DNA of 48,659 bases, from assembly GCA_044342325.1 (NCBI GenBank), contig JBIIPZ010000024.1, positions 1-48,659 on the forward strand, in the 5' to 3' direction. How positions within the stretch are numbered: the stretch's first letter is position 1; every line of letters begins with the position of its first letter. Shown piece by piece: positions 624 to 30,962 of this stretch. The position numbers were made by a program, and so were the translations under genes. The DNA is from Terrimicrobiaceae bacterium. GTDB lineage: Bacteria; Verrucomicrobiota; Verrucomicrobiia; Chthoniobacterales; Terrimicrobiaceae. The notes under the pieces were generated by a model. The model had not been told where the DNA came from and ran no database searches. It saw nothing but the letters and a program-made list of their open reading frames with translations.

Positions 624-1528
624 TCAAACATTCCGGGCCAGCCGGAACCAAATCATGCCGTGTGGGTTTTCCGGGGTGCATGTGAAGCAGAAGTATGGGT
701 ATGGGGAACTGCCATTGATGTGTTTTCTACAGCCTCCGCGGATTCGGTGTGGTGTTCCGCTTCCTTCGGCGTCCCAGCACCATTCCCAATCGGTATCGCT
801 CATGAGGTGGACTCCAAGCTCCGCTCCCGAATGGCACAAGGGGTGATCCTCCGGTGCTTGGCCTTCCACCATGACACCTGCCGCGTTCGGCGCGCTGCCG
901 GTATTCGTCGAGGGGTTGTTTTGTGACAATGGTCCACCGCGTGCCGTCCATTCCCATTCAATGTGACTTGGCAATCTGTAGCCGTTGGCCTTGGCATTCA
1001 TGCTGATTTCGAAAGGTTCCACCGAGCCGTGCACCCTATGCCGGAGGGTCTCGCCTTTTGCTGAATACACCTGCTGAAAGCCTTCGTGTTCGCTCTTCGC
1101 ATTGCACCATTTGAGCGAATCGCTCCAGCTGACCTGCGCCACCGAAGTCCTGTTGGCGTGGAAGTAGCGGCATCTATCTCATAGCCGTGTGCCAATCCCC
1201 AAGCTCTCACCCACTCCCATTCCTCGACGAGCACAGGATATTTTCCGATTTCGAAGGAAGGCACCCGAGCGTCGGCAAATGCTGAATCGCTCGGCAAATT
1301 TCCTCCCGGCACCTCCAGCAGAACTGTGCCGTCCACTGTGAACTCGGATGGCCGCGCAAATGCCAGTAGCAATCTTTTCCTGTCACCCAGCTTGTTGATT
1401 CCCAATTTTTCCAGATCGCTGTCGTCTAGATAATTGATAATATCGTCCTTGACAGCTTGATCTGCAAAAAGAGGCATGAGGTGCTCGAGCTTTGTTTCCT
1501 CGAGGATCGCCTTGAGCCGGTTTTTCAT
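624..1528 (-). pseudogene. SAM domain + FGE-sulfatase-like domain protein, split by a 1-nt frameshift near 1143-1147 (pseudogene or sequencing error)
   Basis: ORF 998..1567 carries the SAM domain and the FGE N-part (true start ATG 1528). ORF 624..1142 continues with VSWSDSLKWCNAKSE...GYRLP...WEWCWD...FRLAR. Colinear with the paralog at 1533..2441. Confidence 0.8.
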
Positions 1529-1532
1529 CCCG

Positions 1533-2441
1533 TTATGACTGGGTGCTTCGGGCCAAGCGAAAACCAATGACGCCGTAGCGGGTTTCGGGACTTCGGCTTA
1601 TGCGGTAACACACCGTGCTTTCGCCTTCTTTGTTTCTCCAACTGCCCCCGCGTATGCGGTGCGCGTAGCCGCTCTCGTCGAGATCCCAGCACCATTCCCA
1701 CACATTTCCGCTCATGTCGTGAATCCCAAGCTCGTTCGCCGCCTTTTTGCCAACCGGCTGGACCGAGCCTGTCGAGTTTTCTTCATACCATCCGACATCC
1801 GTTGGAGTATTGCTGCCGCTAAATTTGTAGCCCTTGCTCAGAGGACCGCCGCGAGCCGCCCATTCCCACTCCGCCTCTGTGGGAAGGCGGTAACCATTCG
1901 CCCTCTCGTGTCTTGTGATGAGCCGTGATCCATCTGGGCCAAACTCGCCGCTTCGGTAAACTTTTCCCTCCATGTGGTAGACGGGTCGCAGTAGCTCATG
2001 TTCGCTCTTCGCGTTGCACCATTTGACCGCATCATACCAGCTCATGTGCGTGATGGGATGCCAACTGCCTTTGGCTTGGCCCGCTCCGAGTTCATAGCCG
2101 TTAGCCAATCCCCAGATGCGCACCCATTCCCACTCATCCTGCATCACGGGATACTTCCCGATTTCAAACTCCTCGACATGCAGTCCCGCCAGCTCCGAGT
2201 CTTCAGGTAGAATCCCGGCGCTGACGGTGATCATCACGGTGCCGCCGAGAGGCAGGTCGATATTGTAGGCAAAAGCGGCGAGTAGTCGCTTGCGGTCGCC
2301 CAGCTTGTGAATCCCGAGTTCCTTCAAGTCGGAGTCCGTCAACTTCGTCAAAATATCATCCGTGATGCCCTGCTCCGAAAAGCTCGGCAGCAAATGCTCC
2401 ATTTTCTCCGACTCTAGAATTGCGGTGAGTTCTTTGCCCAT
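1533..2441 (-). CDS. SAM (sterile alpha motif) domain + FGE-sulfatase/SUMF1-family (CLec-fold) protein
   Basis: N-terminal LLPSFSEQGITDDILTKLTDSDLKELGIHKLGDRKRLLAAF fits the SAM pattern. The C-part has GKYPV, SWYDAVKWCN, YRLPTEAEWEWAARGG, NELGIHDMSGNVWEWCWD, RGGSW and GFRLAR. Start placed at ATG 2441 by comparison with the paralog. Confidence 0.9.
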   Translation of the reverse strand: MGKELTAILESEKMEHLLPSFSEQGITDDILTKLTDSDLKELGIHKLGDRKRLLAAFAYNIDLPLGGTVMITVSAGILPEDSELAGLHVEEFEIGKYPVMQDEWEWVRIWGLANGYELGAGQAKGSWHPITHMSWYDAVKWCNAKSEHELLRPVYHMEGKVYRSGEFGPDGSRLITRHERANGYRLPTEAEWEWAARGGPLSKGYKFSGSNTPTDVGWYEENSTGSVQPVGKKAANELGIHDMSGNVWEWCWDLDESGYAHRIRGGSWRNKEGESTVCYRISRSPETRYGVIGFRLARSTQS

Positions 2442-2545
2442 GCCGGAAAATACCAAGCCTTCCCCCGCGTCAAAGGTGGGTATTCCCCGAATGAAAACAA
2501 GGAAGTCGCGGGGTAATACCAAAAGCTGAATGCTTTTAGACTTAC

Positions 2546-7341: not shown

Positions 7342-7815
7342 CTACCAGCGGAAGTGGGCGAAGGCGCGGTTGGCCTGTGCCATCTTGTGCATGTCGTCGC
7401 GCTTCTTGATCGCGTTGCCTTGACCAGCAGCGGCGTCTTTCAACTCGTAAGCGAGAGCATTTTCCATCGGAACTCCCTTGCGGTTGTTTGCAAAAGTCAC
7501 GAGCCAGCGCATGGCCAAAGCGACTTGGCGTCCAGCAGGGACTTCCATCGGCACTTGGTATGTCGAACCACCCACGCGGCGGGATTTGACTTCGAGGCGT
7601 GGCTTCACGTTCTCGATGGCTTTGTTGAGCGTTTCGAGAGGATCGACCGTATCAGTGCCCTCGCGGGTTTTGTCGATAGCGGTGTAAACGATTTTCTCGG
7701 CGATGGATTTCTTGCCGGACTGCATGACGCTGCTGATGAGGCTGGCGACGAGTGGGCTGGCGTAACGGGCGTCCTTTTTGACTTCCTTGTGAATGACTCT
7801 GCGGCGACGGGACAT
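7342..7815 (-). CDS. rpsG: 30S ribosomal protein S7
   Basis: [44 protein letters not shown]. Confidence 0.99.
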
Positions 7816-7854
7816 ATCTTATTGTATCTATTTAAAAATTTCGGTTCTTGGCGA

Positions 7855-8265
7855 TTACTTCTTCTTGCCCTTGGCTCCCTTGTCCTCTTGGCCTGGCTTC
7901 GGACGCTTGGCGCCGTATTTCGAGCGGCCGCGACGGCGACCATCAACCCCGAGGCTGTCGAGTGTTCCGCGAACGATGTGGTAACGAACGCCTGGAAGAT
8001 CCTTGACCTTGCCTCCGCGAACGAGAACGATCGAGTGCTCCTGGAGGTTGTGTCCCTCGCCGGGGATATAGGCGATGACTTCTTGGCCGTTTGTGAGGCG
8101 AACCTTGGCCACTTTGCGGAGAGCCGAGTTCGGCTTCTTCGGTGTGCGTGTCATCACCTGCACGCAGACGCCGCGACGCTGTGGGCAGTTTGCCAGGGCG
8201 GGCGACTTGGATTTGACTTTGATTTTTTGGCGTCCCTTGCGGACGAGTTGATTAATTGTGGGCAT
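7855..8265 (-). CDS. rpsL: 30S ribosomal protein S12
   Basis: [42 protein letters not shown]. Confidence 0.99.
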
Positions 8266-8360
8266 TCTAAATCTCGTTTTCTGACTCGCGTGATTCGATA
8301 GGATTTCCGTTGTCTGAATATTGACAATGGCACACCACCGACACCTTGCGGGAAGCGAGG

Positions 8361-8388
8361 AGGTTAGGGATCATTCCGCGTGTTGCAA
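8361..8388 (-). promoter_or_regulatory. Candidate sigma70 promoter of the rpsL operon
   Basis: Minus strand TTGCAA-N16-TAACCT, about 95 nt upstream of rpsL, preceded by a T tract. Confidence 0.45.
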
Positions 8389-8439
8389 GAGAAAAAAACA
8401 GATTTTTCAATGCCTTCGGATCATGTATTCCATGGGCCT

Positions 8440-8994
8440 ATGAAGAGGATTTCAGCAGGTTTAGTCATGGTGGTTTTGCTGTGCGGTTGCGCCGGTCCTG
8501 CGGTTTACAATCACGCTGGACCCGTCGTGGAGGCTGAGTCTTCCAAGCCCGGAGTAATTCTCGACGCCGAGGCCGAGCGGGAGGCGATCGGGCGCTTTGA
8601 CGCTTTCTTTGGCGATGTCACCGTTGAGAGCATTCGCTCGCAGATAGACGGCTTTTATGCGCCGGATGTTTATTTCAATGACACTCTGAAAACGCTGCGC
8701 GGTCGCCAAGCGGTGGAGGCTTACTTTCTTCGCATGCCCGAGCACACCGACTTTGTGCGGGGCAAAACACTCGATCATTCGCGATCCGGTGCGAATTACT
8801 ATGTCCGCTGGATTCTCGACGTGCGCTACAAGGGTGCGAAGGAAACAGTCAGCACTATGGGCATGACGCTTCTGCGTTTTGACAAGCAGGGTCGTGTCGT
8901 GCTGCACCAGGATTTCTGGGACTCCTCGGCCGGCTTCTACGAGCATCTGCCTGTGCTTGGCGGTGTGATGCGATGGATCAAGTCGAAAATCTAA
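8440..8994 (+). CDS. NTF2/SnoaL-like domain lipoprotein
   Basis: Signal peptide with lipobox LCGC; YAPDVYFND, G...V.AYF and G.V..HQDFWDS match SnoaL_2-type proteins. Confidence 0.8.
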   Translation: MKRISAGLVMVVLLCGCAGPAVYNHAGPVVEAESSKPGVILDAEAEREAIGRFDAFFGDVTVESIRSQIDGFYAPDVYFNDTLKTLRGRQAVEAYFLRMPEHTDFVRGKTLDHSRSGANYYVRWILDVRYKGAKETVSTMGMTLLRFDKQGRVVLHQDFWDSSAGFYEHLPVLGGVMRWIKSKI

Positions 8995-10007
8995 CGCTGC
9001 TGCCTGAAGTGCGCGGCAGGGCGCTGCGGAGCCTTTTCCAGAGTGGATCTCCGGTTCTCTCCCTCGCTCCGATGCAGGATATCACGGACCTTCCGTTCTG
9101 GCGTCTCATGTCCAAATACGGTGGTGCGGATTTGTATTTCACCGAGTTCTTCCGGGTCACTCCACACTATGTGCCGGAGAAAAACATTCTGCGTTCGATC
9201 CTCGAAAATCCCACCGGGCGTCCGGCTGTGGCGCAGATCATCGGCAATGATCTCGAGGCCATGGCAAGGACGGCGAAGGCGCTCGAGAAGCATCCTGTCG
9301 CAGCTATCGATCTCAACCTGGGATGTCCCGCGCCTGTCGTTTACCGCAAGTGTGCCGGAGGCGGGTTGCTGCGCGATCTGCCGAGGGTGGATGCCCTTCT
9401 CTGCGTCTTGCGTGATGCTGTGGAGGGGGCGTTCACGGTGAAGACGCGGATTGGATTCGAAAGCCCCGGCGAGTTTGATGCGCTGCTCGAGGTTTTTTCA
9501 AAACACCGACTCGATTTGCTCACGGTGCATGGCCGCACCGTAGCAGAAAAATATGGCCCGCATGTGCATCTGGACCGCATTGCCCAAGCTGTGCGCTCCC
9601 TGCCATTTCCTGTGCAGGCGAATGGCAATGTGATCTCTGCCGCCAGCGCAGTGGAAACGCTGCAGCAAACCGGCGCGGCGGGTCTGATGATCGGGCGCGG
9701 GGCGATTCGCAATCCTTGGATTTTTTCGCAGATTCGCGACCGCCTGGCCCGGCGTGAGGTGTCTTTGCCGACAGGTCGGCAGGTTCTGGACTATATCTCC
9801 GAGTTATATGAGGCCGTGTGCAGTCCAGGTGTTCCTGAAAAGGCCCAAGTTCAGAAAATGAAAAAATACATGAACTTTCTCGGCGAGGGATTGGAGACCT
9901 CGGAAGCCTTCCTACATGACATCCGCCGCTGCTCCACGCAGGATGAGTTTTTCGCCATTTGCTCGCGTCACCTTGACCACGAACTGGCGATGCCGCTTCA
10001 ACCGTAG
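8973..10007 (+). CDS. tRNA-dihydrouridine synthase family protein
   Basis: LAPMQDITD, IDLNLGCP, TVKTRIG, TVHGRT, NGNV, MIGRGAIRNPWIF. Exact start uncertain. Confidence 0.92.
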   Translation: MDQVENLTLLPEVRGRALRSLFQSGSPVLSLAPMQDITDLPFWRLMSKYGGADLYFTEFFRVTPHYVPEKNILRSILENPTGRPAVAQIIGNDLEAMARTAKALEKHPVAAIDLNLGCPAPVVYRKCAGGGLLRDLPRVDALLCVLRDAVEGAFTVKTRIGFESPGEFDALLEVFSKHRLDLLTVHGRTVAEKYGPHVHLDRIAQAVRSLPFPVQANGNVISAASAVETLQQTGAAGLMIGRGAIRNPWIFSQIRDRLARREVSLPTGRQVLDYISELYEAVCSPGVPEKAQVQKMKKYMNFLGEGLETSEAFLHDIRRCSTQDEFFAICSRHLDHELAMPLQP

Positions 10008-14566: not shown

Positions 14567-15964
14567 ATGGCTCTTGACCGCATATTGATTGTTGATGACA
14601 CCGCGATTATTCGCAAATCCCTCGAGGAGCGACTGCGGGGCAAGCGGTATGCCGTTTCCACGGCGGGGTCGATTGCGGAGGCCGAAAAGCGCCTCGCGGC
14701 CAATTCGTTTGATCTCATCTTCCTCGACATGGAATTGCCCGATGGCGACGGGCGAGTCTTCATCGAACGCGTCTCCCACAATGACAATAAACCGCTTGTA
14801 GTAATGATTACTGCAAACGGATCGATCGAATCCGTCGTGGAGTGCATGAGGTTGGGGGCTTTCGATTACCTTCCCAAGCCGTTTGCGATGACGCAAATCG
14901 ACCTGATTCTCAAGAAGGCCGCCGAGTTCCAGCGTGCGGTTCGCGTCACGGATTTTCTCAATCGCGAAAGCGTCGCCCGCCGCGAGATCATTGGAAACAG
15001 CCCTGCCATCACCCGCTTGAAAGATCTCATCCATCGTGTCGGCAGGACCAATGCCACGGTCATGATCAGCGGCGAAAATGGAACGGGTAAAGAGTTGGTG
15101 GCAAATGAGATTTTTCTCAATAGTCAGCGAGCGAACAAGCCCTTCATCAAGGTTAACTGCGCCGCCATTTCCGAGACGCTCATCGAAAGCGAATTCTTCG
15201 GCCACGAAAAAGGCTCCTTTACTGGCGCGACCGACCAGCGGGATGGCCGATTCGAATTGGCTGATGGCGGCACCATTCTCCTCGACGAGATCAGTGAGAT
15301 CTCCCTCGCCCTCCAGGCCAAGCTCCTCCGCGTTCTCCAAGAGCGGGAATTCGAACGCGTCGGAGGAAATAAAACCATCAAAGTCGATGTGCGCGTCGTC
15401 GCCACTACGAACCGCGACCTTCTCAAGGCAGTTCAGAAAGGCGACTTTCGCGAGGATCTCTACTACCGCCTCAATGTTTTCCCCATCCAAGTCCCGCCAC
15501 TCCGCGAACGCACGGGGGATGTCGAACTCCTCGCCAATCATTTTCTCGAGCGTTTTTCCAAGGAACACGGCATCAAAAGCGGTGGGTTTTCTGAAAGCGG
15601 CATAGCTGGACTGCTCGCCCACAATTGGCCCGGCAATGTGCGCGAACTCCAAAATGTCGTCGAACGCGCCGCCATCCTCGCCGAGGAAGGAGTGCCCATC
15701 AGCGCCGAACTCATGGGGCTCACCCCGCCAGCGCCCGTTGCTACACCCCAGGCGGCTCCCGTCGTTCAAGAATCCGCTGCTCCGGCTCCCGCTTCGAATT
15801 CCGAAGTGATGCCACTCCACGAACTCGAAAAACGCGCCATCTTCGAAGCCCTCGAGCGCACAAACGGCAACCGCACGCAAGCCGCCGAGCTCCTCCAGAT
15901 CAGCATCCGCACCCTCCGCAACAAGCTTGCCGAATACCGGGGCGACAACGAGGAAGCAGCCTGA
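14567..15964 (+). CDS. Sigma54-dependent response regulator (NtrC/AtoC family)
   Basis: Receiver domain (ILIVDD, LDMELPDGDG, KPF), AAA+ GENGTGKE, ESEFFGHEKGSFTGA, DLYYRLNV, WPGNVREL, and a Fis-type HTH. Confidence 0.96.
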   Translation: MALDRILIVDDTAIIRKSLEERLRGKRYAVSTAGSIAEAEKRLAANSFDLIFLDMELPDGDGRVFIERVSHNDNKPLVVMITANGSIESVVECMRLGAFDYLPKPFAMTQIDLILKKAAEFQRAVRVTDFLNRESVARREIIGNSPAITRLKDLIHRVGRTNATVMISGENGTGKELVANEIFLNSQRANKPFIKVNCAAISETLIESEFFGHEKGSFTGATDQRDGRFELADGGTILLDEISEISLALQAKLLRVLQEREFERVGGNKTIKVDVRVVATTNRDLLKAVQKGDFREDLYYRLNVFPIQVPPLRERTGDVELLANHFLERFSKEHGIKSGGFSESGIAGLLAHNWPGNVRELQNVVERAAILAEEGVPISAELMGLTPPAPVATPQAAPVVQESAAPAPASNSEVMPLHELEKRAIFEALERTNGNRTQAAELLQISIRTLRNKLAEYRGDNEEAA

Positions 15965-15974
15965 TTTTTTCGCA

Positions 15975-16004
15975 TTGACACCATCCCCTCGCGGAAGCCA
16001 TTCT
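15975..16004 (+). promoter_or_regulatory. Candidate sigma70 promoter; implies a leaderless or near-leaderless mRNA for the ORF at 16013
   Basis: TTGACA-N18-CATTCT, ending 8 nt before GTG 16013. Confidence 0.55.
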
Positions 16005-16012
16005 CCGCGCCC

Positions 16013-16417
16013 GTGTCTACGCTCCGTCGAAAAATCCTCGCTTCCTGCGGCCAAGTCATAGCCGCCGTAGCGTTGTTTTTTATCATCGGTGGCCACTGGG
16101 GAGTCCTGCAAACCGTGGCCTGGGCGAACATGATTTGGACCTACTCCACGCAGGACGGCTCAGTCCTTGCCGGTGCGAAAAAAACCTTCGATGGCGAGCA
16201 CCCCTGCAACATGTGCGATTCGATCAAGGAGGCCAAAAAGCAGGAAAAGAAAGCCCCCGAGATTTTGTCGGCCACCAAGAAAATCGAACTCTTCGCCCTC
16301 AACGATGCCAACCTCCTCCCCGTGCCCGTGAGCGCCCCGTTCCAATTTCCTCTCCCCCGGAATCTCACGGCGGAATCCCGCCCGCATTCCCCAGCCACTC
16401 CCGTGCCCATAGCCTGA
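16013..16417 (+). CDS. Small membrane protein with CxxC and Pro-rich C-terminus upstream of a TonB-dependent receptor (DUF2946/CruR-like)
   Basis: N-terminal hydrophobic segment, GGHW, HPCNMC, C-terminus RPHSPATPVPIA; first gene of the TBDR operon. Confidence 0.7.
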   Translation: MSTLRRKILASCGQVIAAVALFFIIGGHWGVLQTVAWANMIWTYSTQDGSVLAGAKKTFDGEHPCNMCDSIKEAKKQEKKAPEILSATKKIELFALNDANLLPVPVSAPFQFPLPRNLTAESRPHSPATPVPIA

Positions 16418-16590
16418 GGCGCGTGATTCTTTTCTAAAAAGCCGGACCCCTCGTCCGGATCAACCCAAGCCTTGGGCGCCGCACATTTCTTCGCGGCCAT
16501 AAAAACCTCGGCCTCCTCTGCGGCATCACTTTTGTGCGTTCGATGTCGAACGCCACGCGGAGGGATGAATATCTAAATATTGTTAAATAA

Positions 16591-18804
16591 ATGAAAAAAA
16601 ATACTTTAAAACAAATTTTACAGCCTTGCCTCGCTTTGGTTGGCGCTCTTTTGCTATCCACGGCAGCAGCCTTTGCGGAGCCTGAGCCATCTCCCTCACC
16701 ATCACCCACTCCTAGTCCTGAAGCCCCTCAAGTTCTTCCGGAAACGGTTGTGACCGCAAAACCAGAGTCTTTGACAAACCCCTCCATTTCAAGCCGCAGG
16801 GAGCAAATTGACGAAACAGTCGGAGCCGGTGAGATCATCGATGCCGAGACCTACAAGCGCGGACGCTCCACGACATTGAAAGACGCCTTGGATTTCGCGC
16901 CGGGTGTATTCGTCCAACCGCGTTTTGGCGCTGAGGAGGCGCGTATTTCGATTCGTGGTTCGGGCATTCAGCGCACTTTCCACGGCCGTGGACTCAAGCT
17001 CTTGCAGGATGGCATCCCAATCAACCTTGCCGATGGAAGTTTCGACTTTCAAGTGATCGAGCCTCTAGCTTCGAAGGCTGTGGAGGTCTTTCGCGGCTCG
17101 AATGGCTTGGAATACGGAGCGACAACGCTTGGTGGCGCGCTGAATTTTATTTCCTACACCGGATACGACGCGCCGTTGCTCGACGCCCGCTTTGAATTTG
17201 GAAGTTTCAATACCTACCGGGCGCAGCTTGCCAGCGGCGATGTGGTCGGCCCGTTCGACTACTATGTGAGCCTCACGCATTTTTCCACAGATGGGTATCG
17301 TGAGCACAGCAGTCAGAACAACCAGCGTCTCTTTGCCAACCTCGGCTGGAAATTCAATAACGAGCTTGAGACCCGCTTCTATGTGGCCGTCGCTCAGACG
17401 GATTCCGAACTCCCCGGCAGCTTAACGGCTGCGCAACTGGATGAGGATCCCACCCAGGCGCAACGCGTTCCGCCGTTTCTGCGTTCGCGTCAACCCGTGG
17501 CGCGTTTCGACTATGTTACCAGCAACTGGAAGCGCGATTACGACCTGATTCGTATCGCGAACAAGACGACTTGGCAGATTGATGACAACCGTCTCAGTAT
17601 CGGTGGCTTCTGGTCGCGCAAGGATTTGGATCACCCGATCCTTTTCGTCATCGACCAGTTGACGAACGATTTCGGTGTCTCCCTGCGCAATGATTACACC
17701 GGCGATTTTATGGGTCATAAAAACAGCCTCATTTTCGGATTCTCGCCAACCTGGGGATATGTCAACGACTCGCGTTTTGTGAACAATTTCGGCGAGCGTG
17801 GAAGTCAGTTTGCGAGCACCGACCAGTTTGCGCTGAATCTGGATTTCTACCTGCAGGAGCAATTCTGGATCAATTCGCAGTGGGCGCTCTGCGTCGGTTC
17901 GCAATTGAACTATGTGCAGCGCACCAGCACTGACAACTGGCCCACGGGCCCCGACAACAGCGATTCCCAAAGCTGGTGGGGAGTCAGTCCCAAGGCAGGA
18001 TTCCTTTATCAACCAGTCAAAGAGGTTCAATTCTACACAGACTTCAGTCGCAGCTTCGAGCCGCCCTCATTTGGCGAACTGGTCGAGGCTTCAAATGGCC
18101 AGGTCGGACTTGTCCAACTCGACGCCCAAACCGGATCAACGATCGAAATCGGCACGCGCGGGCGCTTCAAGCATCTGACATGGGATCTTTGCTACTATTA
18201 TTCCTGGATGCAAAATGAGCTCATGGCTTATGAGATCGCGCCGGGCCTCACGCAAACGGTGAACGCCGACGACACGCGCCATCAAGGAGTCGAGTTCGCA
18301 GCGAACTGGGATATCTTCTACAATCTCTTCACCCAAGAAAAAGCCGACTCGAAGGGCTTTGAAGGAGACTACTCGAGTGAGCAGCCCGATTTCGACCGGG
18401 TTTTGCTGAGGGTAAACTACCTCTGGAACAACTTCGCCTATGTCAACGACGCGGTGTATGGAAACAACCTGCTTCCAGGTATTCCCGAACACTACATCCG
18501 GGCTGAATTGCTCTACGAGCACCCGTGCGGATTCTACATTGGGCCGAATTTCGAGTATGTGCCGGTGGGCTACAGCATCGACTCCGCAGGCACTGTGTTC
18601 ACCGACAGCTATGCACTCCTTGGAGCCAAGATCGGCTGGCGCTCGCCCACGGGCTTGTCGGCCTACTTCGAGGTGCGAAACATTGTTGATACCACCTACA
18701 CCGCGACCTCCGGCGTTGTTGCAAATGCCAATGGACTTGATGTGGCCCAGTTCCTGCCTGGGGATGGTCGTGGGTTTTACTTTGGGGTAGAATATCGCTG
18801 GTAA
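16591..18804 (+). CDS. TonB-dependent outer-membrane receptor
   Basis: Signal peptide, PS-rich linker, TonB box ETVVTA, plug motifs (SIRGSG, LQDGIP, EVFRG, GGALNFIS), terminal GVEYRW. Confidence 0.95.
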   Translation: MKKNTLKQILQPCLALVGALLLSTAAAFAEPEPSPSPSPTPSPEAPQVLPETVVTAKPESLTNPSISSRREQIDETVGAGEIIDAETYKRGRSTTLKDALDFAPGVFVQPRFGAEEARISIRGSGIQRTFHGRGLKLLQDGIPINLADGSFDFQVIEPLASKAVEVFRGSNGLEYGATTLGGALNFISYTGYDAPLLDARFEFGSFNTYRAQLASGDVVGPFDYYVSLTHFSTDGYREHSSQNNQRLFANLGWKFNNELETRFYVAVAQTDSELPGSLTAAQLDEDPTQAQRVPPFLRSRQPVARFDYVTSNWKRDYDLIRIANKTTWQIDDNRLSIGGFWSRKDLDHPILFVIDQLTNDFGVSLRNDYTGDFMGHKNSLIFGFSPTWGYVNDSRFVNNFGERGSQFASTDQFALNLDFYLQEQFWINSQWALCVGSQLNYVQRTSTDNWPTGPDNSDSQSWWGVSPKAGFLYQPVKEVQFYTDFSRSFEPPSFGELVEASNGQVGLVQLDAQTGSTIEIGTRGRFKHLTWDLCYYYSWMQNELMAYEIAPGLTQTVNADDTRHQGVEFAANWDIFYNLFTQEKADSKGFEGDYSSEQPDFDRVLLRVNYLWNNFAYVNDAVYGNNLLPGIPEHYIRAELLYEHPCGFYIGPNFEYVPVGYSIDSAGTVFTDSYALLGAKIGWRSPTGLSAYFEVRNIVDTTYTATSGVVANANGLDVAQFLPGDGRGFYFGVEYRW

Positions 18805-19499
18805 TGAAAGCTTCCACTCTCCGTCGTCTCCACCGCTGGCTCGGGCTGATTTTCAGCCTGAGCATCCTGGCCTCCGCCCTCAGCGGCGTGCTCCATACCA
18901 TCATGGCCAACAAGCAACCACCGCCGCCTGCAGTCAAGCCGAGCGGATCTTTTCTCGATCCTTCAGCGATTCGAATCGGAGTTGCCGATGCCATGAAAAA
19001 TCTTGCGCCGGATTTTGGAAATGTGGCCGCCATCAATCTCAGAATGATCGGTGGCGAGCCATGGTATCAAATCTACGGAGCCTCTCCCGTGCCATCCTAT
19101 GTCAGTGCGTTGGACGGCCGTATCGAGCCCTCGCAGGATGAAAAATACGGAGCCGAGATTGCAGAGAGGTTTCTCGGTGGCGCGAAGGTCGCGAAGACTG
19201 ATTACCTGACCTCCTTCAACAAGGAATACATCAACATTTTTCGGGTGCTCCCGGTTTATCGCTTTGATAGCGAGGATGGCCGAGGGACCCGCGTCTATGT
19301 GAGCACAACCACGGGAAGCGTGACTCGATACACGAATGATCAGATGCAGTTTGAGGCAAATGTTTTCAGCAACTTTCACAAGTTGGCATTCATTCCAGAC
19401 CGCAAGACGCGCGATATCGTGCTCGTCACGCTCACCGGCGGCACGGCCCTCGCGGCTTTGGCTGGTGTTTTCCTGTTTTTCTACACGCGCCGGAAATAA
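18804..19499 (+). CDS. PepSY-associated TM helix protein
   Basis: RRLHRWLGLIF N-terminus, PepSY-like VYRF...VYVS..TG, FHKL and a C-terminal TM; 1-nt overlap with the receptor gene. Confidence 0.85.
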   Translation: MKASTLRRLHRWLGLIFSLSILASALSGVLHTIMANKQPPPPAVKPSGSFLDPSAIRIGVADAMKNLAPDFGNVAAINLRMIGGEPWYQIYGASPVPSYVSALDGRIEPSQDEKYGAEIAERFLGGAKVAKTDYLTSFNKEYINIFRVLPVYRFDSEDGRGTRVYVSTTTGSVTRYTNDQMQFEANVFSNFHKLAFIPDRKTRDIVLVTLTGGTALAALAGVFLFFYTRRK

Positions 19500-19504
19500 T
19501 CCTA

Positions 19505-20098
19505 ATGATCGAAATTTTTCACAAAGGCGGCCCGATCATGTGGCCGCTGTTGCTTGTCTCAGTGGTTGCTTTGACAGTTGTCATCGAGCGCCTGGTCTTC
19601 ATCGCCTTGGAAAAAAAGAACCGCAATCCCGCATTGGTCGGCGATATTTTAACCAAGGTGGAAAACGGGCATGTGGATGAGGCCGCTCGGTTGGGGGAGG
19701 GGTCGAAGGACTTTGTCGCTCGGGCCCTGACCTATGCGCTCACACATCGCGAGAAGTCCTTCAGCGAGGCCATGCTGCGCTCGGCAAATTGGGAACTCAA
19801 GCGCTTCAACCGGGGACTTACCCTCCTCGATACAGCCATCACGCTTGCCCCGTTGCTGGGACTGCTTGGAACCGTGATAGGAATGATCGGGAGTTTCAAT
19901 ATGCTGGGAGGGTCTGAATTGGGCGCCCCCGCTGCGATCACCGGAGGCATCGCCGAGGCACTCATTGCGACGGCATTCGGCTTGGGCATTGCGATAACAG
20001 CCCTGCTGCCATTCAACTATCTCAACGCCCGCGAAGAGGAGGCCCGGCTGGAAATCCAAGATGCCGCCAGCCATGTGGAGCTGCATCTGAAAAAGTAG
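19505..20098 (+). CDS. exbB: MotA/TolQ/ExbB proton channel protein
   Basis: GGPIMWPL, APLLGLLGTVIGMI, GIAEALIATAFGL. Confidence 0.92.
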   Translation: MIEIFHKGGPIMWPLLLVSVVALTVVIERLVFIALEKKNRNPALVGDILTKVENGHVDEAARLGEGSKDFVARALTYALTHREKSFSEAMLRSANWELKRFNRGLTLLDTAITLAPLLGLLGTVIGMIGSFNMLGGSELGAPAAITGGIAEALIATAFGLGIAITALLPFNYLNAREEEARLEIQDAASHVELHLKK

Positions 20099-20101
20099 GC
20101 G

Positions 20102-20518
20102 ATGGATATCCCAAGATTTCGCCAGAAACGCCGGGCCCGAATTGAGATCGTGCCGCTCATCGACATCATTTTCTTTTTGCTGGCGACTTTCGTCTTGGTC
20201 TCCCTCTCCATGGTCAAGCACAAGGGCATCCCCGTCGTTCTTCCAAGCGCCGCCACGGGCGTTCAGCAAGAGCAGAAAGACCATGTGGTGATCAGTATTT
20301 CCGAGGCGGGACAGCTTTACCTCGATAAGAATGAGCTCCAGCCTGAGGAGTTGTATAAAACAATGCGCTCTCTCTGGGAGAAGGACTCCGGGCTCCGGGT
20401 TCTCATCAACGGCGATGAGAATGCCCGCCTCGGCTTGGCTATTCAGGTGCTCGATGAAATCCGCAAAATCGGCATCACAAAAGTCGCTTTTGAAACGACT
20501 CCCAAGCCGGCTCATTGA
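20102..20518 (+). CDS. exbD: Biopolymer transporter ExbD
   Basis: IEIVPLIDIIFFLLATF, VVLPSA, INGDENA. Confidence 0.92.
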   Translation: MDIPRFRQKRRARIEIVPLIDIIFFLLATFVLVSLSMVKHKGIPVVLPSAATGVQQEQKDHVVISISEAGQLYLDKNELQPEELYKTMRSLWEKDSGLRVLINGDENARLGLAIQVLDEIRKIGITKVAFETTPKPAH

Positions 20519-20521
20519 TTG

Positions 20522-21232
20522 ATGCAATACGCCAATTCCGGCTTCAGTGGGCGTCGAAGAATTGTGCTGGGCTGTGGAATCATAGCTGTTGCCCTACACG
20601 CGCTGGTTCTTTTTTGCTGGGATTCACATCCCCGTCCCGTGGAAATCCAAGATGTGGCCGAGGGCTCTGTGGAGGTGGAGCTTTTTGAAGGTCCGCCTGC
20701 CGTCGAGTCGGCTGCGACTGATGAGCCAGCCGAGCCGATAGAAGAGATTCCCCAGCCCGAGCCGGAGCCCTCTCCGCAAGAGGCTCCCTCTGAAATGCCA
20801 ATCCTGCCTGCGCCGGAGCCGCCCCCAGAGCCAATGGCCACGCCTCAACCCTCACCCAAACCTGCCCCTCGCAAAGTGGTGCAAGCATCCACTCCTACAA
20901 AAAAAGGAGTCGCGAATTCCCCAGCATCGGGGGCCCTGACCAAAGGAGCCCCGGAGGGAACCGGTCGCCAACTCATCGGCAAACCCACCTACATCGTAAA
21001 ACCGTCGCCTTCCTACCCAGCGGAATCCCGCTCCGCGCGAGAGCAAGGCCTCGTGGTCCTGAGAATCACCGTCAACGCAACAGGACGCCCGACCCATGTC
21101 GAGATCCTCAAATCCAGCGGATACCCCCGCCTCGACCGCGCCGCCCTCGAAGCTGGCTGGCGTTGCCGAATTCGAAACGCCACCCCCGGCGACCAATTCG
21201 ACGCCCCCCTGCGCTTCAATCTTCAAAATTAG
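20522..21232 (+). CDS. tonB: Energy transducer TonB
   Basis: TM with ALH, Pro/Glu-rich linker, PSYP...EQGLV.L..V...G, SSGYPRLDRAA. Confidence 0.9.
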   Translation: MQYANSGFSGRRRIVLGCGIIAVALHALVLFCWDSHPRPVEIQDVAEGSVEVELFEGPPAVESAATDEPAEPIEEIPQPEPEPSPQEAPSEMPILPAPEPPPEPMATPQPSPKPAPRKVVQASTPTKKGVANSPASGALTKGAPEGTGRQLIGKPTYIVKPSPSYPAESRSAREQGLVVLRITVNATGRPTHVEILKSSGYPRLDRAALEAGWRCRIRNATPGDQFDAPLRFNLQN

Positions 21233-21329
21233 CCGCCCAATCCCAGCGCTCGCTACGACCAAAAATTTGGACGATCGTCCAAAAAAACTGCTCAACGAGT
21301 CTGGGAGCGGCTTGGCGGGTGCAAAAGAA

Positions 21330-24967: not shown

Positions 24968-25204
24968 ATGAAGCGGACACTCGACAGCCTGAAGGTGGGC
25001 AGCCGTGCAGAAATCGAAGACTTTGCCTCGGATTGTGACCGTGCGAACCGCATGGCTACGCTGGGGTTCATTCCTGGTCGCATGGTGAAAGTAACCCGCT
25101 TTGCTCCTCTGGGAGATCCGATTTCGGTGGAAGTCGATGGCCAGGAAATCAGCCTTCGTCGGGCTGAAGCGCACATTATTCAGGTGAAGAACATCGCTGA
25201 ATGA
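24968..25204 (+). CDS. feoA: Ferrous iron transport protein A
   Basis: RMATLGFIPG, APLGDPI, ISLRRAEA; overlaps the feoB start. Confidence 0.95.
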   Translation: MKRTLDSLKVGSRAEIEDFASDCDRANRMATLGFIPGRMVKVTRFAPLGDPISVEVDGQEISLRRAEAHIIQVKNIAE

Positions 25205-27420
25205 ACGCTCCAACCGAAGCTTCGCCGAAAAAGCGGTCGGGCCGTCCACTGGTCGCGCTCGTGGGAAATCCTAACACCGGCAAATCCACGCTTTTCAACC
25301 GCCTCACCGGCCTGCGCCAGCATATTGCGAATTATCCAGGCATCACGGTGGAAAAAAAATCCGGCCTCCTGCGCTCGGGTGGCATCGAATTGGATATTCT
25401 GGACCTGCCAGGCTGCTACAGCCTCACAGCCGTCTCGAACGACGAGCGGGTGGTGATGGATGTGCTCGGAGGGCGTCGGGGATTGCAGAAGCCGGACCTG
25501 CTGGTCTTTGTGCTCGATGCGACAAACCTCAAGCGCAACCTGCTTCTTGTCTCGCAATGCGCGGAGTTGGGTATCCCTGCGTTGATCGCCCTGAACCAGT
25601 GCGACGCCGCGAAACGAAATGGCATTCGTATCGATGTGGACTTGCTTGCCAAGAGGCTCGGCGTCCCGGTCGTGGAAACCATCGCCACACGCGGCAACGG
25701 GCTCGAGGAGTTGAAGCGGGCCATCGTCACCGCGCTCGATGCCCCGTCCGCTCTTCCCAAAATTCACTGGCCAGACTGCATCACCCACGGATGCGGATTG
25801 CTCCGTGCGGGTTTTCAGGGGGCTGGAAGCAGCGACCTCACCCAAGCCGAGGCGCTGCGCGTCCTTTTCGACAGCGACAGCGTCTTCACATGCGGCGTGA
25901 GCGACAAAGCCTGTGTGAAGAAGTTGCTCGATACCGCACACAAAGAAATTCGCGAGTCCGGCTTGAATCCCGGCTCCGCCGAGGCGGTGATCCATTACCG
26001 CCACCTGGAAACCCTCCTCGACGGCGTGGTCGAGGCCAGCGGACCGCTCGCCCGCTCGCACGACTCCATCGACGCCCTCCTGCTCAACCGCGTGTGGGGA
26101 ACGCTCATTTTCCTGGGTGTGATGTATGTGGTCTTCCAAAGCCTCTACTCCTGGGCTGGGCCGCTCATGGATTTGATCGATGCGGGAACCTCGGCCACGC
26201 AGGATCTCATTCGTCCGCTACTCTCCGCCAACCCGGCGCTGCAGAGCCTGGTGTGCGACGGCATCATTGCCGGAGTCGGCGGCGTGTTGATTTTTCTCCC
26301 GCAGATTTTGATTCTCTTTTTCTTCATCGCGCTACTTGAGGACACCGGCTACATGGCCCGCGCTGCATTCCTTGTGGATAAACTTTTCAGCTGGTGCGGG
26401 CTCAATGGACGCAGCTTCGTGCCGCTTCTCTCAAGCTACGCCTGCGCGATTCCTGGCGTGATGGCCACCCGCACGCTCAGCGATCCCAAGGCCCGTCTCA
26501 CGACGATTCTCATGGCGCCGTTCATGAGCTGTTCGGCGAGATTGCCGGTTTACATTTTGCTTATCGGAACCTTCATCGAGCCACTCTACGGGCCGCTTGT
26601 GGCGGGTGCCGTGCTTTTTGCGATGCACTTTGTTGGTCTCGCACTCGCGCTTCCGCTGGCGTGGGTGCTGAACAGGTTTTTTCTGAAAATCAAAACCCAG
26701 CCGTTCATCCTCGAGATGCCGGATTATCGGGTGCCGACGCTTCGGAATATTTTCCACCGCATGTGGGAACGCGGCCGCGAGTTTGTGCTCCGGGCGGGCA
26801 CCGTCATTCTCGCCTTTTCGATTCTCATCTGGTCGCTCCTCTACTTCCCGCGCGATCCGGAGGTGAAGGAAAAGGCCGCTCAGTCCTTCCTTGCTTCGGC
26901 GGCTCACTCATACGCGCCGGCTGAAATCCAAGCGGCATTGGAAAATCCCGAATCCGACCTCAGCACCGCTTTGACCCACCACATCGACTCAGCCTACATC
27001 GAGCAAAGCTACCTCGGCCGATTCGGCAAGGCAGCGCAGCCGGTTTTCGATCCTGCTGGATTTGATTGGAAGATCACTGTCGGTGTCCTCTCCAGCTTTC
27101 CCGCGCGCGAGGTCATTATCGCGACCATGGGTATTATCTACAACCTCGGTGCCGATGTGGATGAGGGCTCAGACGACCTTCGCAGCGTGCTCCAAAAAGA
27201 AAAATGGACCAGCGGTCCGCGCGAGGGCCGACCAGTCTACACGCTGCCTGTGGTGCTCGGAATCATGGTCTTCTTTGCCCTCTGCATGCAGTGCGGAGCG
27301 ACGGTGGCGATCATTGCCCGCGAACTGAATTGGCGATGGGCCGCGTTTTCCTTTTTTGGAATGACTGCCTTGGCTTGGCTGAGCGCTGTTTTGATTTATC
27401 AGCTTTCGAGCTTATTCTAA
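25201..27420 (+). CDS. feoB: Ferrous iron transport protein B
   Basis: GNPNTGKS, NYPGITVE, DLPG, EDTGYMARAA, PFMSCSARLP, AREV. Confidence 0.98.
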   Translation: MNAPTEASPKKRSGRPLVALVGNPNTGKSTLFNRLTGLRQHIANYPGITVEKKSGLLRSGGIELDILDLPGCYSLTAVSNDERVVMDVLGGRRGLQKPDLLVFVLDATNLKRNLLLVSQCAELGIPALIALNQCDAAKRNGIRIDVDLLAKRLGVPVVETIATRGNGLEELKRAIVTALDAPSALPKIHWPDCITHGCGLLRAGFQGAGSSDLTQAEALRVLFDSDSVFTCGVSDKACVKKLLDTAHKEIRESGLNPGSAEAVIHYRHLETLLDGVVEASGPLARSHDSIDALLLNRVWGTLIFLGVMYVVFQSLYSWAGPLMDLIDAGTSATQDLIRPLLSANPALQSLVCDGIIAGVGGVLIFLPQILILFFFIALLEDTGYMARAAFLVDKLFSWCGLNGRSFVPLLSSYACAIPGVMATRTLSDPKARLTTILMAPFMSCSARLPVYILLIGTFIEPLYGPLVAGAVLFAMHFVGLALALPLAWVLNRFFLKIKTQPFILEMPDYRVPTLRNIFHRMWERGREFVLRAGTVILAFSILIWSLLYFPRDPEVKEKAAQSFLASAAHSYAPAEIQAALENPESDLSTALTHHIDSAYIEQSYLGRFGKAAQPVFDPAGFDWKITVGVLSSFPAREVIIATMGIIYNLGADVDEGSDDLRSVLQKEKWTSGPREGRPVYTLPVVLGIMVFFALCMQCGATVAIIARELNWRWAAFSFFGMTALAWLSAVLIYQLSSLF

Positions 27421-29382: not shown

Positions 29383-29398
29383 TGGCACGCTGATTGCT
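29383..29398 (+). promoter_or_regulatory. Sigma54 (-24/-12) promoter of amtB-PII
   Basis: TGGCAC-GCTGA-TTGCT, an exact consensus match about 60 nt upstream of amtB. Confidence 0.9.
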
Positions 29399-29456: not shown

Positions 29457-30962
29457 ATGCTCATAAAAAACAAAACACTGGCACACCTTGCAGCTGCGAT
29501 TCTCGCGGCAGGGTCTCTCACCCTCTCGGCGGCGTTCGCTCAAGACGCCACCACAACCGTCGTTGAACAAACGACCACAACCACTGTCGTGAGCGAAACC
29601 ACGGCTCCAGCGGAGGCCGCTGCACCGGCTGAGCCGACCATGGAACAGCGCCTCGCTGACCTTGAGGCCTATGTCAACAACTCGGCCCGCACGCCGGATG
29701 TGGCATCCAAGATCGCCGGCCCCGGCCCCGGTCATAATGCGTGGCAGATGGTGAGCACGGCTCTGGTTCTCTTCATGACACTACCCGGCTTGGCCCTCTT
29801 TTATGGTGGCTTGGTGCGCTCGAAGAATGTGCTTTCGATCCTGGCCATGACACTTGGAATCGCTGGACTGGTTACGATTCTATGGTTCCTGTGTGGATAC
29901 AGCCTCACCTTCTCCGGTGGAAACGCCTTCATCGGCGATCTGGCACAAGCCTGCTTCAACGGGATGCTCCCGGGCAATGTCGGCGCGGGCTACTACTGGA
30001 TCTCCGACTACATCTGGGCAATGTTCCAGCTGACCTTCGCGATCATCACACCAGCGCTCATCTTCGGAGCCACCGCAGAGCGCATGAAATTCTCCGCCGT
30101 GCTTCTTTTCACAGCGATCTGGATGTTTGTCGTTTACTTCCCGCTCGCCCACATGGTTTGGGCTGTTAACGGTTTCATGTGCGGTCCTCTTAATGCGGAT
30201 GCCGGCATCAAGGCGATCGATTTCGCAGGCGGCACGGTGGTTCACATGAGCTCCGGATGGTCCGCTCTTGTTCTCTGCATCATCCTCGGGCCACGCCTTG
30301 GATTCGGCAAAGTCCCAATGCCTCCGCACTCCATGGTTCTCTGCATGGTGGGCACTGGAATGCTCTATGTCGGCTGGTTCGGTTTCAACGCGGGTTCCGC
30401 ACTCGGAGCTGACGCAATCGCTGCAAACGCTTTCACCAACACATTCATCTGCGCTGCCACCGCTGGCTTTGTCTGGGGTGTTGTGGAATGGATTCTCAAA
30501 GGCAAACCGAGCGTGTTGGGTTTCTGCTCGGGCATCGTTTCTGGTCTCGTTGTCATCACTCCCGCAGCTGGATTTGTCACACCGGCAAGCGCGATGATCA
30601 TGGCTGTAATTGCCGGCATCGTTCCGTTCTTTGCGGTCGTTTACCTGAAGAAAATGCTGGGTTATGATGACGCCCTCGACACCTTCGGCGTCCACGGCGT
30701 TGGCGGCACTTTGGGAGCCATCTTGACTGGTATCTTCGCGAGTCCTTCCGCTAACGGGGTCCTGGAAAGCATGAACCTCATGGACGGCCTCCTCCTCAAT
30801 CAGCTCAAAGCCTGCGTCCTGACCATCGTCCTCTCCGTCGTGGCGACAACAATCATCGCCCTGATCGTGAAATACACCATCGGCCTCCGCCCAACTCAAG
30901 AAGTCGAAGATGCAGGTCTCGACACCTCAGAGCACGGCGAAGAGGGCTATCTCATTGACTAA
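29457..30962 (+). CDS. amtB: Ammonium transporter
   Basis: FMTLPGLALFYGG, FQLTFAIIT, DFAGGTVVH, WFGFNAGS, DDALDTFGVH (twin His intact); signal peptide. Confidence 0.97.
   Translation: MLIKNKTLAHLAAAILAAGSLTLSAAFAQDATTTVVEQTTTTTVVSETTAPAEAAAPAEPTMEQRLADLEAYVNNSARTPDVASKIAGPGPGHNAWQMVSTALVLFMTLPGLALFYGGLVRSKNVLSILAMTLGIAGLVTILWFLCGYSLTFSGGNAFIGDLAQACFNGMLPGNVGAGYYWISDYIWAMFQLTFAIITPALIFGATAERMKFSAVLLFTAIWMFVVYFPLAHMVWAVNGFMCGPLNADAGIKAIDFAGGTVVHMSSGWSALVLCIILGPRLGFGKVPMPPHSMVLCMVGTGMLYVGWFGFNAGSALGADAIAANAFTNTFICAATAGFVWGVVEWILKGKPSVLGFCSGIVSGLVVITPAAGFVTPASAMIMAVIAGIVPFFAVVYLKKMLGYDDALDTFGVHGVGGTLGAILTGIFASPSANGVLESMNLMDGLLLNQLKACVLTIVLSVVATTIIALIVKYTIGLRPTQEVEDAGLDTSEHGEEGYLID

Follow-up and report, generated by a model that had tools for sequence, protein, structure and literature searches.

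Does a small open reading frame (ORF) ahead of a TonB-dependent uptake operon sense metal through its own nascent chain? This question is raised by a 48,659-nt contig stretch from a Terrimicrobiaceae bacterium (GCA_044342325.1, JBIIPZ010000024.1), which we refer to as the window and whose coordinates we give on the forward strand. An earlier note on this DNA had proposed that a 134-aa ORF in the window is a metal-sensing leader resembling CruR, a peptide that precedes a TonB-dependent receptor in Bordetella pertussis. We place this leader ORF at 16013..16417 (+), from a GTG start to a TGA stop, within an unnamed family of Verrucomicrobiota, and its homologues, codon variation, and conserved motifs make it a candidate metal-sensing leader. 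The reading that we develop here, by analogy and with our judgment about evenly poised between acceptance and rejection, is that it heads an operon for the uptake of a metal, probably copper, and acts in cis as a nascent-peptide metal sensor that follows the logic of CruR and of a second known leader, CutF. We favor this reading because an invariant His/Cys site, a fixed ruler, a proline-rich end at the stop codon, and structured or C-rich RNA before uptake genes match the components of CruR and CutF.

Judging from sequence variation among 14 close relatives, the leader ORF is a real, translated gene: its variable sites divide 44/20/85 over codon positions 1/2/3, and 44 of its codons show synonymous change only, which is why we take the frame to be translated. 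The elements that the earlier note had read in it, namely GGHW, HPCNMC, and a Pro-rich end, are all present. A basic N terminus (RRK) leads into a hydrophobic helix at residues 8–26 (Kyte-Doolittle [KD] mean 2.33), the GGHW turn at residues 26–29, and an amphipathic, Trp-rich helix at residues 28–45 (KD 0.30), an arrangement spanning codons 8–45 (16034..16147, +) that was assigned from an AlphaFold2 (AF2) model, hydropathy, and alignment. HPCNMC, at residues 63–68 (16199..16216, +), is a putative metal site, and its P64, C65, and C68 are invariant across 67 diverse members of the family. The tail, RPHSPATPVPIA (residues 123–134; 16379..16414, +), is a putative stalling segment that the family alignment equates with a PPxPPP[RK] or PPVPVPI motif in relatives. 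The ORF matched no Pfam or NCBIfam family.

The family to which it belongs is large. Homologues number 208 at E ≤ 0.01 (clusters at 90% identity), and in a 1.84-billion-protein representative library clustered at 50% identity the family comprises 1794 clusters at E ≤ 0.001 and 650 at E ≤ 1e-10. By their record titles, the relatives come from Terrimicrobiaceae, Chthoniobacterales, and other Verrucomicrobiota, in keeping with the earlier suggestion of a sensor in another phylum than that of CruR. Of 301 sampled Verrucomicrobiota genomes, the family model matched 70, each carrying one to three copies, for 81 matches overall; the source genome of the window has a single copy. Beyond the metal site, invariance across the 67 diverse members extends to A36, W37, and M40, and G26, Q33, Y44, T58, F59, G61, P127, P130, and P132 are conserved in at least 90%. 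C65 and C68 are invariant in both of our alignments (22 and 67 sequences).

The proline-rich end is set at a near-constant distance from the cysteines. Both PCxxC and a late PxP occur in 252 of 269 family proteins; the second Cys precedes the late PxP by 62 residues in 154 of these 252 and by 59–65 residues in 232, and 1–7 residues follow the late PxP in 231, with the proviso that this set is redundant and its counts overweight close relatives. The family consensus for the tail is RxxxPPxPxP / PPP[RK], and members typically finish in P-x-PPP-R-x(1-4)-stop. When 41 ORFs drawn from 35 genomes spread over the phylum are inspected in their last 14 residues, PPP is present in 34, PP in 6, and neither in 1; for the 143 representatives that contain PCxxC, the corresponding numbers are 73 for PPP (followed by R in 52), 47 for PP, 8 for PxP, and 15 for none of these. 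In the window's clade this end has diverged: the tail in Chthoniobacterales reads DAPPVPVPI[AT]DLV, and the window ORF and its nearest relatives end SPATPVPIA-stop, with no consecutive prolines. Conservation of the C terminus, which had been put forward as a check, is thus borne out by the three prolines listed above and by the retained Cys-tail distance. The Pro codons of the tail differ among loci; therefore, selection appears to act on the amino acids.

Immediately downstream lies a complete uptake cassette in the order that had been claimed, TBDR-PepSY-exbB-exbD-tonB, with the PepSY_TM part falling below its Pfam cut-off. It encodes a 737-aa TonB-dependent receptor (TBDR) with Plug and barrel domains (16591-18804), a short PepSY_TM-like protein of 231 aa with two transmembrane segments (18804-19499; PepSY_TM 24.9 bits against a cut-off of 28.8), ExbB (19505-20098), ExbD (20102-20518), and a TonB with a Pro-rich linker and a TonB_C domain (20519-21232), all on the plus strand and assigned with Pfam. 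The presence of ExbB, ExbD, and TonB inside the cassette agrees with the dedicated Ton motor described earlier. Among homologues of the 231-aa protein, many match PF03929 and some bear the name PepSY domain protein. Against NCBIfam, the receptor gave generic, sub-threshold TBDR matches only. Over its full length it is 53% identical to the TBDR of a leader-family locus that we designate L104, 42% identical to that of L108, where PepSY_TM and CusF-like proteins are encoded, and 39% identical to that of L089, where SCO1 and HMA proteins are encoded. Because of this resemblance to the receptors of loci with CusF-like, PepSY_TM, SCO1, and HMA proteins, we propose that the substrate of the cassette is probably copper. 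A FeoB ferrous iron transporter is encoded at 25201-27417 (+), 4 kb downstream of the Ton cassette, and we mention it as context only.

Association with uptake genes extends through the family. We scanned the next same-strand ORFs at 40 loci from 35 genomes, a non-random set picked by hand from the 81 matches. The first downstream gene encodes a TBDR at 14 of these 40 loci (L087, L092, L099, L104, L107, L108, L109, L113, and L118-L123, with L122 assigned by BLAST only), TonB at two (L105, L106), a MetA-type outer-membrane (OM) barrel at five (L097, L101, L103, L112, L117), and an extracytoplasmic function (ECF) sigma factor at two (L094 and L095, in genomes G093 and G279). An N-methyl/DUF1559 protein is encoded by the first or second downstream gene at six loci, and the first downstream gene is of another or unknown kind, or missing, at ten. 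At the remaining locus, L089, a second family copy follows and then genes for cytochrome c, SCO1/SenC, HMA, and TBDR proteins. Synteny between the leader ORF and a TBDR gene, which had been suggested as a check, is thus seen directly at the 14 loci and further down the cluster in L089. PepSY_TM follows the TBDR in L092 and L108, and genomes with two or three leader copies have each copy ahead of a different uptake gene. The second leader copy of G279 (L105) and the copy in a genome of the same genus, G132 (L106), both precede TonB.

Proteins of copper type (SCO1, HMA, CusF-like) are encoded at 5 of the 40 loci (L089, L107, L108, L111, L123), and in L107 a SCO1-CusF fusion is encoded just upstream of the leader ORF. 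The clearest copper context that we found is L089 (G123:C6:66465-76842), where the minus strand, from 7884 to 1017, carries two tandem leader copies followed by genes for cytochrome c, SCO1/SenC, an HMA-domain protein, a TBDR, and a histidine kinase.

These features raise the question of kinship with the known metal-sensing leaders. DUF2946/CruR proteins are described as having a CXXC motif, RAPP three residues from the end, an export signal in >95% of members, and conserved spacing between motifs. The profile search of the leader ORF against DUF2946 that the earlier note had called for did not bear out membership: PF11162 (gathering score 23.7 bits) gave no match to the ORF at E ≤ 1, none in the window's contig at E ≤ 10, and none among the 67 family members at E ≤ 10. 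Among 201 Verrucomicrobiota genomes, four had a PF11162 match above the cut-off, and as a comparison set we aligned nine Verrucomicrobiota DUF2946 proteins with classical [HD]xCxxC...R[AG]PP ends. In the reverse direction, hmmsearch with the family model against 20 Verrucomicrobiota loci with DUF2946-type matches reached a best E of 0.75, and hhalign of the family alignment against the nine proteins returned a probability of 2.7% (E 0.017) over 16 columns around CxxC. On these searches we rejected DUF2946 membership of the leader ORF. The sole PF11162 match in the source genome (L001, 21 bits, on another contig) is antisense to a 531-aa ORF and was likewise discarded.

One may still suppose that the leader family shares descent with DUF2946 or the CutF-like proteins and is a genuine branch of them that has diverged extremely far. 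The order of elements is the same (hydrophobic N terminus, H-x-C-x-x-C, fixed spacer, Pro-rich end, stop), the neighbors are of the same kinds, the nearest named clusters in the ESM Atlas (0.89, a lead only) bear DUF2946, DUF6769, and DUF6660 labels, and CutF-like proteins are defined broadly, in 29 sequence clusters mainly from Pseudomonadota and Bacteroidota (Ozturk et al. 2023; 2025 preprint). Given the failed profile searches, an hhalign match confined to the residues around CxxC, and the absence of RAPP, we think such descent unlikely. Thus the leader ORF is, as far as its sequence allows a judgment, built like a DUF2946 protein without being a demonstrable member, and the leader family is most likely either unrelated to CruR and CutF or diverged past detection. 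Of the earlier description of an "analogous or remotely homologous" CruR-like sensor, the analogy survives, in the PCxxC, the tail, the spacing, the synteny, and the structured or C-rich spacers, and homology to DUF2946 was not found.

The likeness to CruR itself (Bp2923, of the Bordetella pertussis cruR-bfrG(crtA)-bp2921 locus) is close in architecture. Both systems have a small first ORF, a long intergenic region (162 nt for CruR, 173 nt here), a TBDR gene, and a PepSY_TM-type gene, and both peptides have a hydrophobic N terminus, a Cys pair, and a Pro-containing motif near the stop with conserved spacing between them. More than 40% of cruR-crtA-PepSY_TM operons are reported to have cruR first, and some include exbBD-tonB; the window shows the same order of upstream ORF (uORF), TBDR, and PepSY_TM together with exbBD-tonB, its PepSY_TM being a short, sub-cut-off form. 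The differences lie in the peptides. Aside from the lack of detectable sequence or profile similarity, CruR has a RAPP tail, whereas the leader family has PPxPPP[RK] or PPVPVPI and the window ORF PATPVPIA; its Cys-tail spacing is ~46 residues (C93 to R139) compared with ~62; it is described as poorly structured and undetected as a protein, whereas the N-terminal 95 residues of the leader are conserved and confidently predicted; and it is proteobacterial rather than verrucomicrobial.

CutF of Rhodobacter capsulatus offers a second comparison. It too is <150 aa, with a Cys/His metal motif and a C-terminal Pro repeat, and the ...GPPPRL on which it is described to stall, melting a stem-loop over the cutO ribosome-binding site, resembles the PPPR-x(1-4) end of the leader family. 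PPP is described as a translation-impeding sequence and as the functional motif of CutF. CutF is needed in cis upstream of a metal-homeostasis gene and is followed by RNA structure with a Shine-Dalgarno (SD)-like sequence, a position that the window ORF shares; reported neighbors of CutF-like genes, including TonB-like and CusF proteins, also occur at leader-family loci. In contrast to the leader ORF, CutF bears CxxxC and a Sec signal that can be cleaved, and its control of a multicopper oxidase relies on a short stem-loop covering the real ribosome-binding site, whereas the SD-like element here lies 27 nt (TBDR type) or ~50 nt (PEP-CTERM type, described below) before the cargo start. By the published CutF-like rule of PP within the last 15 residues, the window ORF falls outside and the family falls inside, with PP or PPP in 40 of 41 relatives from the genome set.

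The third known group, the RAPP/RGPP arrest peptides, are small uORFs with a localization signal and a C-terminal arrest motif ahead of metal-homeostasis genes; they precede genes for TonB-dependent receptors, PCuAC, YcnI, and PepSY proteins, and such uORFs ahead of TBDRs have been described as universal in Gram-negative bacteria (EMBO J 2025, PMC12992588). Their defining tetrapeptide is absent from the window ORF and from the family consensus, as the "non-RAPP" label of the earlier note had it. The literature that we found held no account of such a family in Verrucomicrobiota, which may nonetheless have been included previously in large CutF-like lists; the term Verrucomicrobiota does not occur in the text supplementary files of the CutF-like survey.

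If the leader peptide acts in cis, the RNA that follows it should matter. The interval between the leader stop and the receptor gene (16418-16590) is exactly the 173 nt counted previously, and its description as structured is supported by folding: the fold of 16395-16620 has a minimum free energy (MFE) of -63.7 kcal/mol (z -2.70), equaled by 2 of 200 shuffles. The part that stays with the leader whatever the cargo (16418..16570, +) is predicted from RNA folding and alignment to form helices at 16412-16420/16469-16477, 16442-16458, and 16478-16482/16493-16497. RNAalifold applied to 14 relatives yielded 43 pairs, three of which show compensatory double changes (17 cells); all three fall in the hairpin GCGTTCG-ATGT-CGAACGC (16536..16553, +), whose arms appear as GCGUUCG/CGAACGC, GCAGCC/GGCUGC, and GCCGCCC/GGGCGGC. 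Within the specified structure, 96.4% of cells pair, compared with 32-44% when the partners are slid, and the covariation score was reached by 0 of 500 shuffles, a result to be read with the reservation that related sequences can beat all shuffles without structure.

The last conserved element of this RNA is an SD-like sequence, CACGCGGAGGGA (16554..16565, +), identified by fold and alignment. Because it lies too far ahead of the cargo start, at the distances given above, it is not the SD of the cargo. It can pair in two ways: the consensus structure joins it to 16517-16522 (TCTGCG), and the single-sequence MFE structure pairs 16554-16564 with the leader's own tail codons, CCACTCCCGTG (16395..16405, +). 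The latter helix is compatible in 94.3% of cells and shows no double change. These tail codons do not vary in nucleotide sequence among the 14 relatives; indeed, codons 129-133 are invariant in all 14 sequences, with 85 of 134 third positions varying elsewhere, and we roughly estimate ~0.007 for five consecutive silent third positions. This invariance may point to a constraint that acts on the tail codons at the level of RNA.

Base composition suggests a further feature. The C/G ratio rises to 3.27 in 16280-16357, a value that exceeds the 99th percentile of the window, and most of the spacer keeps a ratio of 1.5-1.9; a C-rich, G-poor skew is typical of Rho loading sites. Spacers of distant TBDR-linked loci measure 38-212 nt and are often C-rich and G-poor as well (e.g., 63/18, 98/43). 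A scan of 15800-16800 with Rfam found no family, only a chance lncRNA match at E 0.28, and we found no intrinsic terminator on the plus strand of the window's spacer.

How these parts might work together is suggested by the predicted fold of the peptide. The AF2 model of the leader ORF, built from the family alignment, has a mean pLDDT of 83.8, with 70 residues at ≥90 and residues 10-80 at >92. It contains helices at 3-24 and 27-48, which form a hairpin with its turn at the conserved GG (pLDDT >90), and at 51-58, 66-80, and 82-95; residues 96-134 are non-helical, with pLDDT of 60-79, so that the ordered part stops near residue 95. Foldseek found no match for the model in the PDB at E ≤ 0.001. 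The ribosomal exit tunnel holds 30-40 residues, and since the ~39 residues beyond the ordered part are of this length, the geometry fits a nascent-chain sensor. When the ribosome reached the Pro-rich end, residues 96-134 would fill the exit tunnel, and the membrane hairpin and CxxC helices (residues 3-95) would have just emerged. Metal bound by His63, Cys65, and Cys68 could then alter folding or pulling force and thereby the dwell time of the ribosome at the end of the ORF. Occupancy of 16395-16417 by the ribosome would in turn set the fold of the spacer, leaving the SD-like element at 16554-16565 to pair either with the tail codons or with 16517-16522, and it may also govern Rho loading on the C-rich 16280-16540. 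By either route, expression of TBDR-PepSY-ExbBD-TonB would be set. Sequence does not allow us to predict in which direction the system would respond; arrest is described as relieved by metal in CruR and induced by metal in CutF.

Comparison of neighborhoods across genomes revealed that the genes behind the leader are exchanged as a unit. In a first set of 33 loci from species-representative genomes, several of them too short for their neighbors to be judged, phmmer located the window's cassette at six (L002, L004, L005, L006, L008, L025). Seven close relatives (L003, L007, L009, L010, L012, L013, L014), with leaders 76-98% identical, instead have ORFs of 271-280 aa and 224-230 aa. Two such loci were scanned: L009 encodes a protein with a sub-threshold PEP-CTERM end and a prepilin N-methyl protein (H-X9-DG), and L013 the N-methyl protein only. 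Among more distant Chthoniobacterales loci, nine encode a PEP-CTERM protein and ten an N-methyl/DUF1559 protein after it. When the window is compared with the PEP-CTERM-type relatives, their DNA remains homologous across the upstream activator gene, the leader ORF, and the spacer as far as ~16570, and homology returns at 21256, 24 nt past the TonB stop, which defines a swappable cargo cassette at 16571..21255 (+). In place of the 4.7-kb TBDR-PepSY-ExbBD-TonB cassette, these relatives carry a 1.56-kb pair of PEP-CTERM and H-X9-DG prepilin-like genes (L009 7557-9117, L010, L014); the junctions are the conserved leader spacer on one side and the sucD-side flank on the other, and L003 differs again. 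Cargo is swapped behind leader ORFs that are 96-98% identical.

The converse is seen in L025, where the same cassette (TBDR 78.5%, ExbB 81%, ExbD 74%, and PepSY-like 66% identical) stands behind a leader only 48% identical to that of the window. Thus, leader alleles that differ greatly have either acquired or retained their association with this cassette. Two details of these loci are recorded separately. The TBDR homologue of L025 (7614-9696) matches as two segments, 7614-7949 and 7963-9696, that are not in the same frame, which may reflect a frameshift, a pseudogene, or an assembly error. In L009, the stretch that separates the conserved spacer from the start of the PEP-CTERM gene contains a perfect 32-nt palindrome at 7566-7597 (AAATGTTCGATGTTTA / TAAACATCGAACATTT), which resembles an operator and is not conserved in L010 or L014.

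Several observations weigh against a cis-acting metal sensor. The family has no sequence relation to DUF2946 by any profile test. Most close relatives and many Chthoniobacterales loci carry PEP-CTERM and H-X9-DG pilin-like cargo, which has no evident link to metal. The window tail lacks the PP or PPP carried by most of the family, and therefore stalling of the polyproline type is not expected here. Modeled as a covariance model and searched against 69 more distant loci, the spacer gave two weak matches (E 0.024 and 0.71), neither beside a leader homologue, which is why we regard the RNA element as modeled as specific to the window's clade. The AT-rich 25-50 nt ahead of the cargo start could hold a promoter belonging to the cargo. 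At eight folded Chthoniobacterales loci of the PPVPVPI tail type (L017, L020, L024, L026, L027, L029, L030, L033), a different, conserved hairpin, ACGCGGA-GUGUU-UCCGCGU, followed by a U-rich run lies 8-9 nt past the stop; by its sequence it resembles an intrinsic terminator or attenuator, near enough for a terminating ribosome to reach, and it could simply end a monocistronic gene. Finally, the N-terminal 95 residues of the leader are far more conserved and better predicted than an export signal requires, which, as far as the model can be trusted, suggests a stable functional protein.

The last points are what would be expected under the main rival reading, a small, stable inner-membrane metalloprotein acting in trans, such as a chaperone or acceptor for copper or another metal, or a sensor, working with outer-membrane importers. 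The Pro-rich end would then be an interaction or spacer motif, and the conserved RNA a 3' UTR or terminator. Conservation of the whole N-terminal domain, including the polar helix residues H28, Q33, W37, M40, and Y44, and the confident AF2 model speak for such a protein, as do the post-stop hairpin with its U-run and the AT-rich stretch that could serve as a separate cargo promoter. It would, however, have no constant partner: cargo is swapped behind nearly identical ORFs, and diverse TBDR subfamilies follow. The Pro motif is also pinned to the extreme C terminus at a fixed distance from the cysteines, and PPP impedes translation and is functional in CutF. No longer, fused forms of the family turned up, although that search is weak evidence. 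On balance we consider a metalloprotein acting in trans possible, though doubtful.

The gene upstream of the leader suggested yet another role. An NtrC-type sigma-54 activator, recognized with Pfam, is encoded at 14567-15964, its stop 48 nt before the leader start, and the two genes may be co-transcribed. The promoter that the earlier note had placed ahead of the leader did not hold up: TTGACA is present at 15975-15980, with no acceptable -10 element, and a sigma-70 scan of 15800-16800 returned 0 sites. The leader ORF could be imagined as a membrane regulator in trans, anti-sigma-like or a partner of the adjacent activator. At 14 of the 33 loci (L002-L014, L034) the gene immediately upstream is of NtrC type, sigma-70-family genes are found upstream in L018, L024, L029, and L033, and L094 and L095 have ECF sigma genes downstream. 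Across 39 loci, however, the upstream genes are heterogeneous, unrelated housekeeping genes, and we found no sigma-54-like site on the plus strand near the leader ORF. Zinc-binding anti-sigma factors have HxxxCxxC in an N-terminal cytoplasmic domain that precedes a transmembrane segment; the leader motif is HxCxxC, located after the hydrophobic segment, and no anti-sigma Pfam family was matched. We therefore regard a trans-acting regulator as very improbable.

The activator itself probably has a different task. A perfect sigma-54 consensus, TGGCAC-N5-TTGCT, occurs at 29383-29398 (+), 59 nt upstream of an ammonium transporter gene (ORF 29457-30959), and its position makes the activator probably a nitrogen regulator, one that may act at 29383 rather than on the leader ORF. 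Four public RNA runs matched 6-10% of sampled words, all in short contigs of relatives, and two of them (X3/X4) gave identical results and may be one data set. Portions of the activator gene and of the leader ORF are covered by some of these contigs; one of 213 nt spans 15901-16113, and another stops matching at 16564 and runs on into other downstream sequence. Because they are uninformative on transcript ends, strand, and level, we draw no conclusion from them on co-transcription or attenuation. Elsewhere in the window, at 627-2522 (-), two adjacent ORFs pair sterile alpha motif (SAM) with FGE-sulfatase domains, which is unusual in bacteria.

Returning to the nascent-chain sensor, its logic would be that of the known leaders, with, on the sequences compared, a sensor domain that is distinct and much better conserved and with a ruler and a tail of its own; a clade-specific, putatively riboregulatory RNA and clear cassette exchange come in addition. 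A broader reading, which we offer tentatively and with more doubt than belief, is that Verrucomicrobiota evolved, independently of DUF2946, a portable platform that joins a membrane nascent-chain metal sensor to a structured RNA and behind which whole cassettes are exchanged through recombination, so that many envelope functions are gated. The sensor would comprise the helix hairpin, HPCxxC, the 62-residue ruler, and a polyproline or PVPI arrest tail, and in the window's clade a new, PP-free arrest sequence would be coupled to the pairing between tail codons and spacer. Cargos of such a platform would include TBDR-PepSY-ExbBD-TonB, PEP-CTERM/pilin-like pairs, OM barrels, copper chaperones, and ECF sigma factors.

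Post-transcriptional control by metal-sensing leader peptides, exemplified by CruR, CutF, and the RAPP-type uORFs, has come to light only recently, and the cases described are mostly from Proteobacteria, Bacteroidota, and Actinomycetota. If the reading given here is true, it would extend this principle to Verrucomicrobiota through a large unnamed family present in about a quarter of sampled genomes. The family would also provide natural experiments, in its PPPR, PPVPVPI, and PATPVPIA tails, in one leader that precedes several cargos, and in one cargo that follows divergent leaders. For these abundant freshwater bacteria, it would point to copper as the substrate of a TBDR-PepSY-Ton cassette that is otherwise unassignable.

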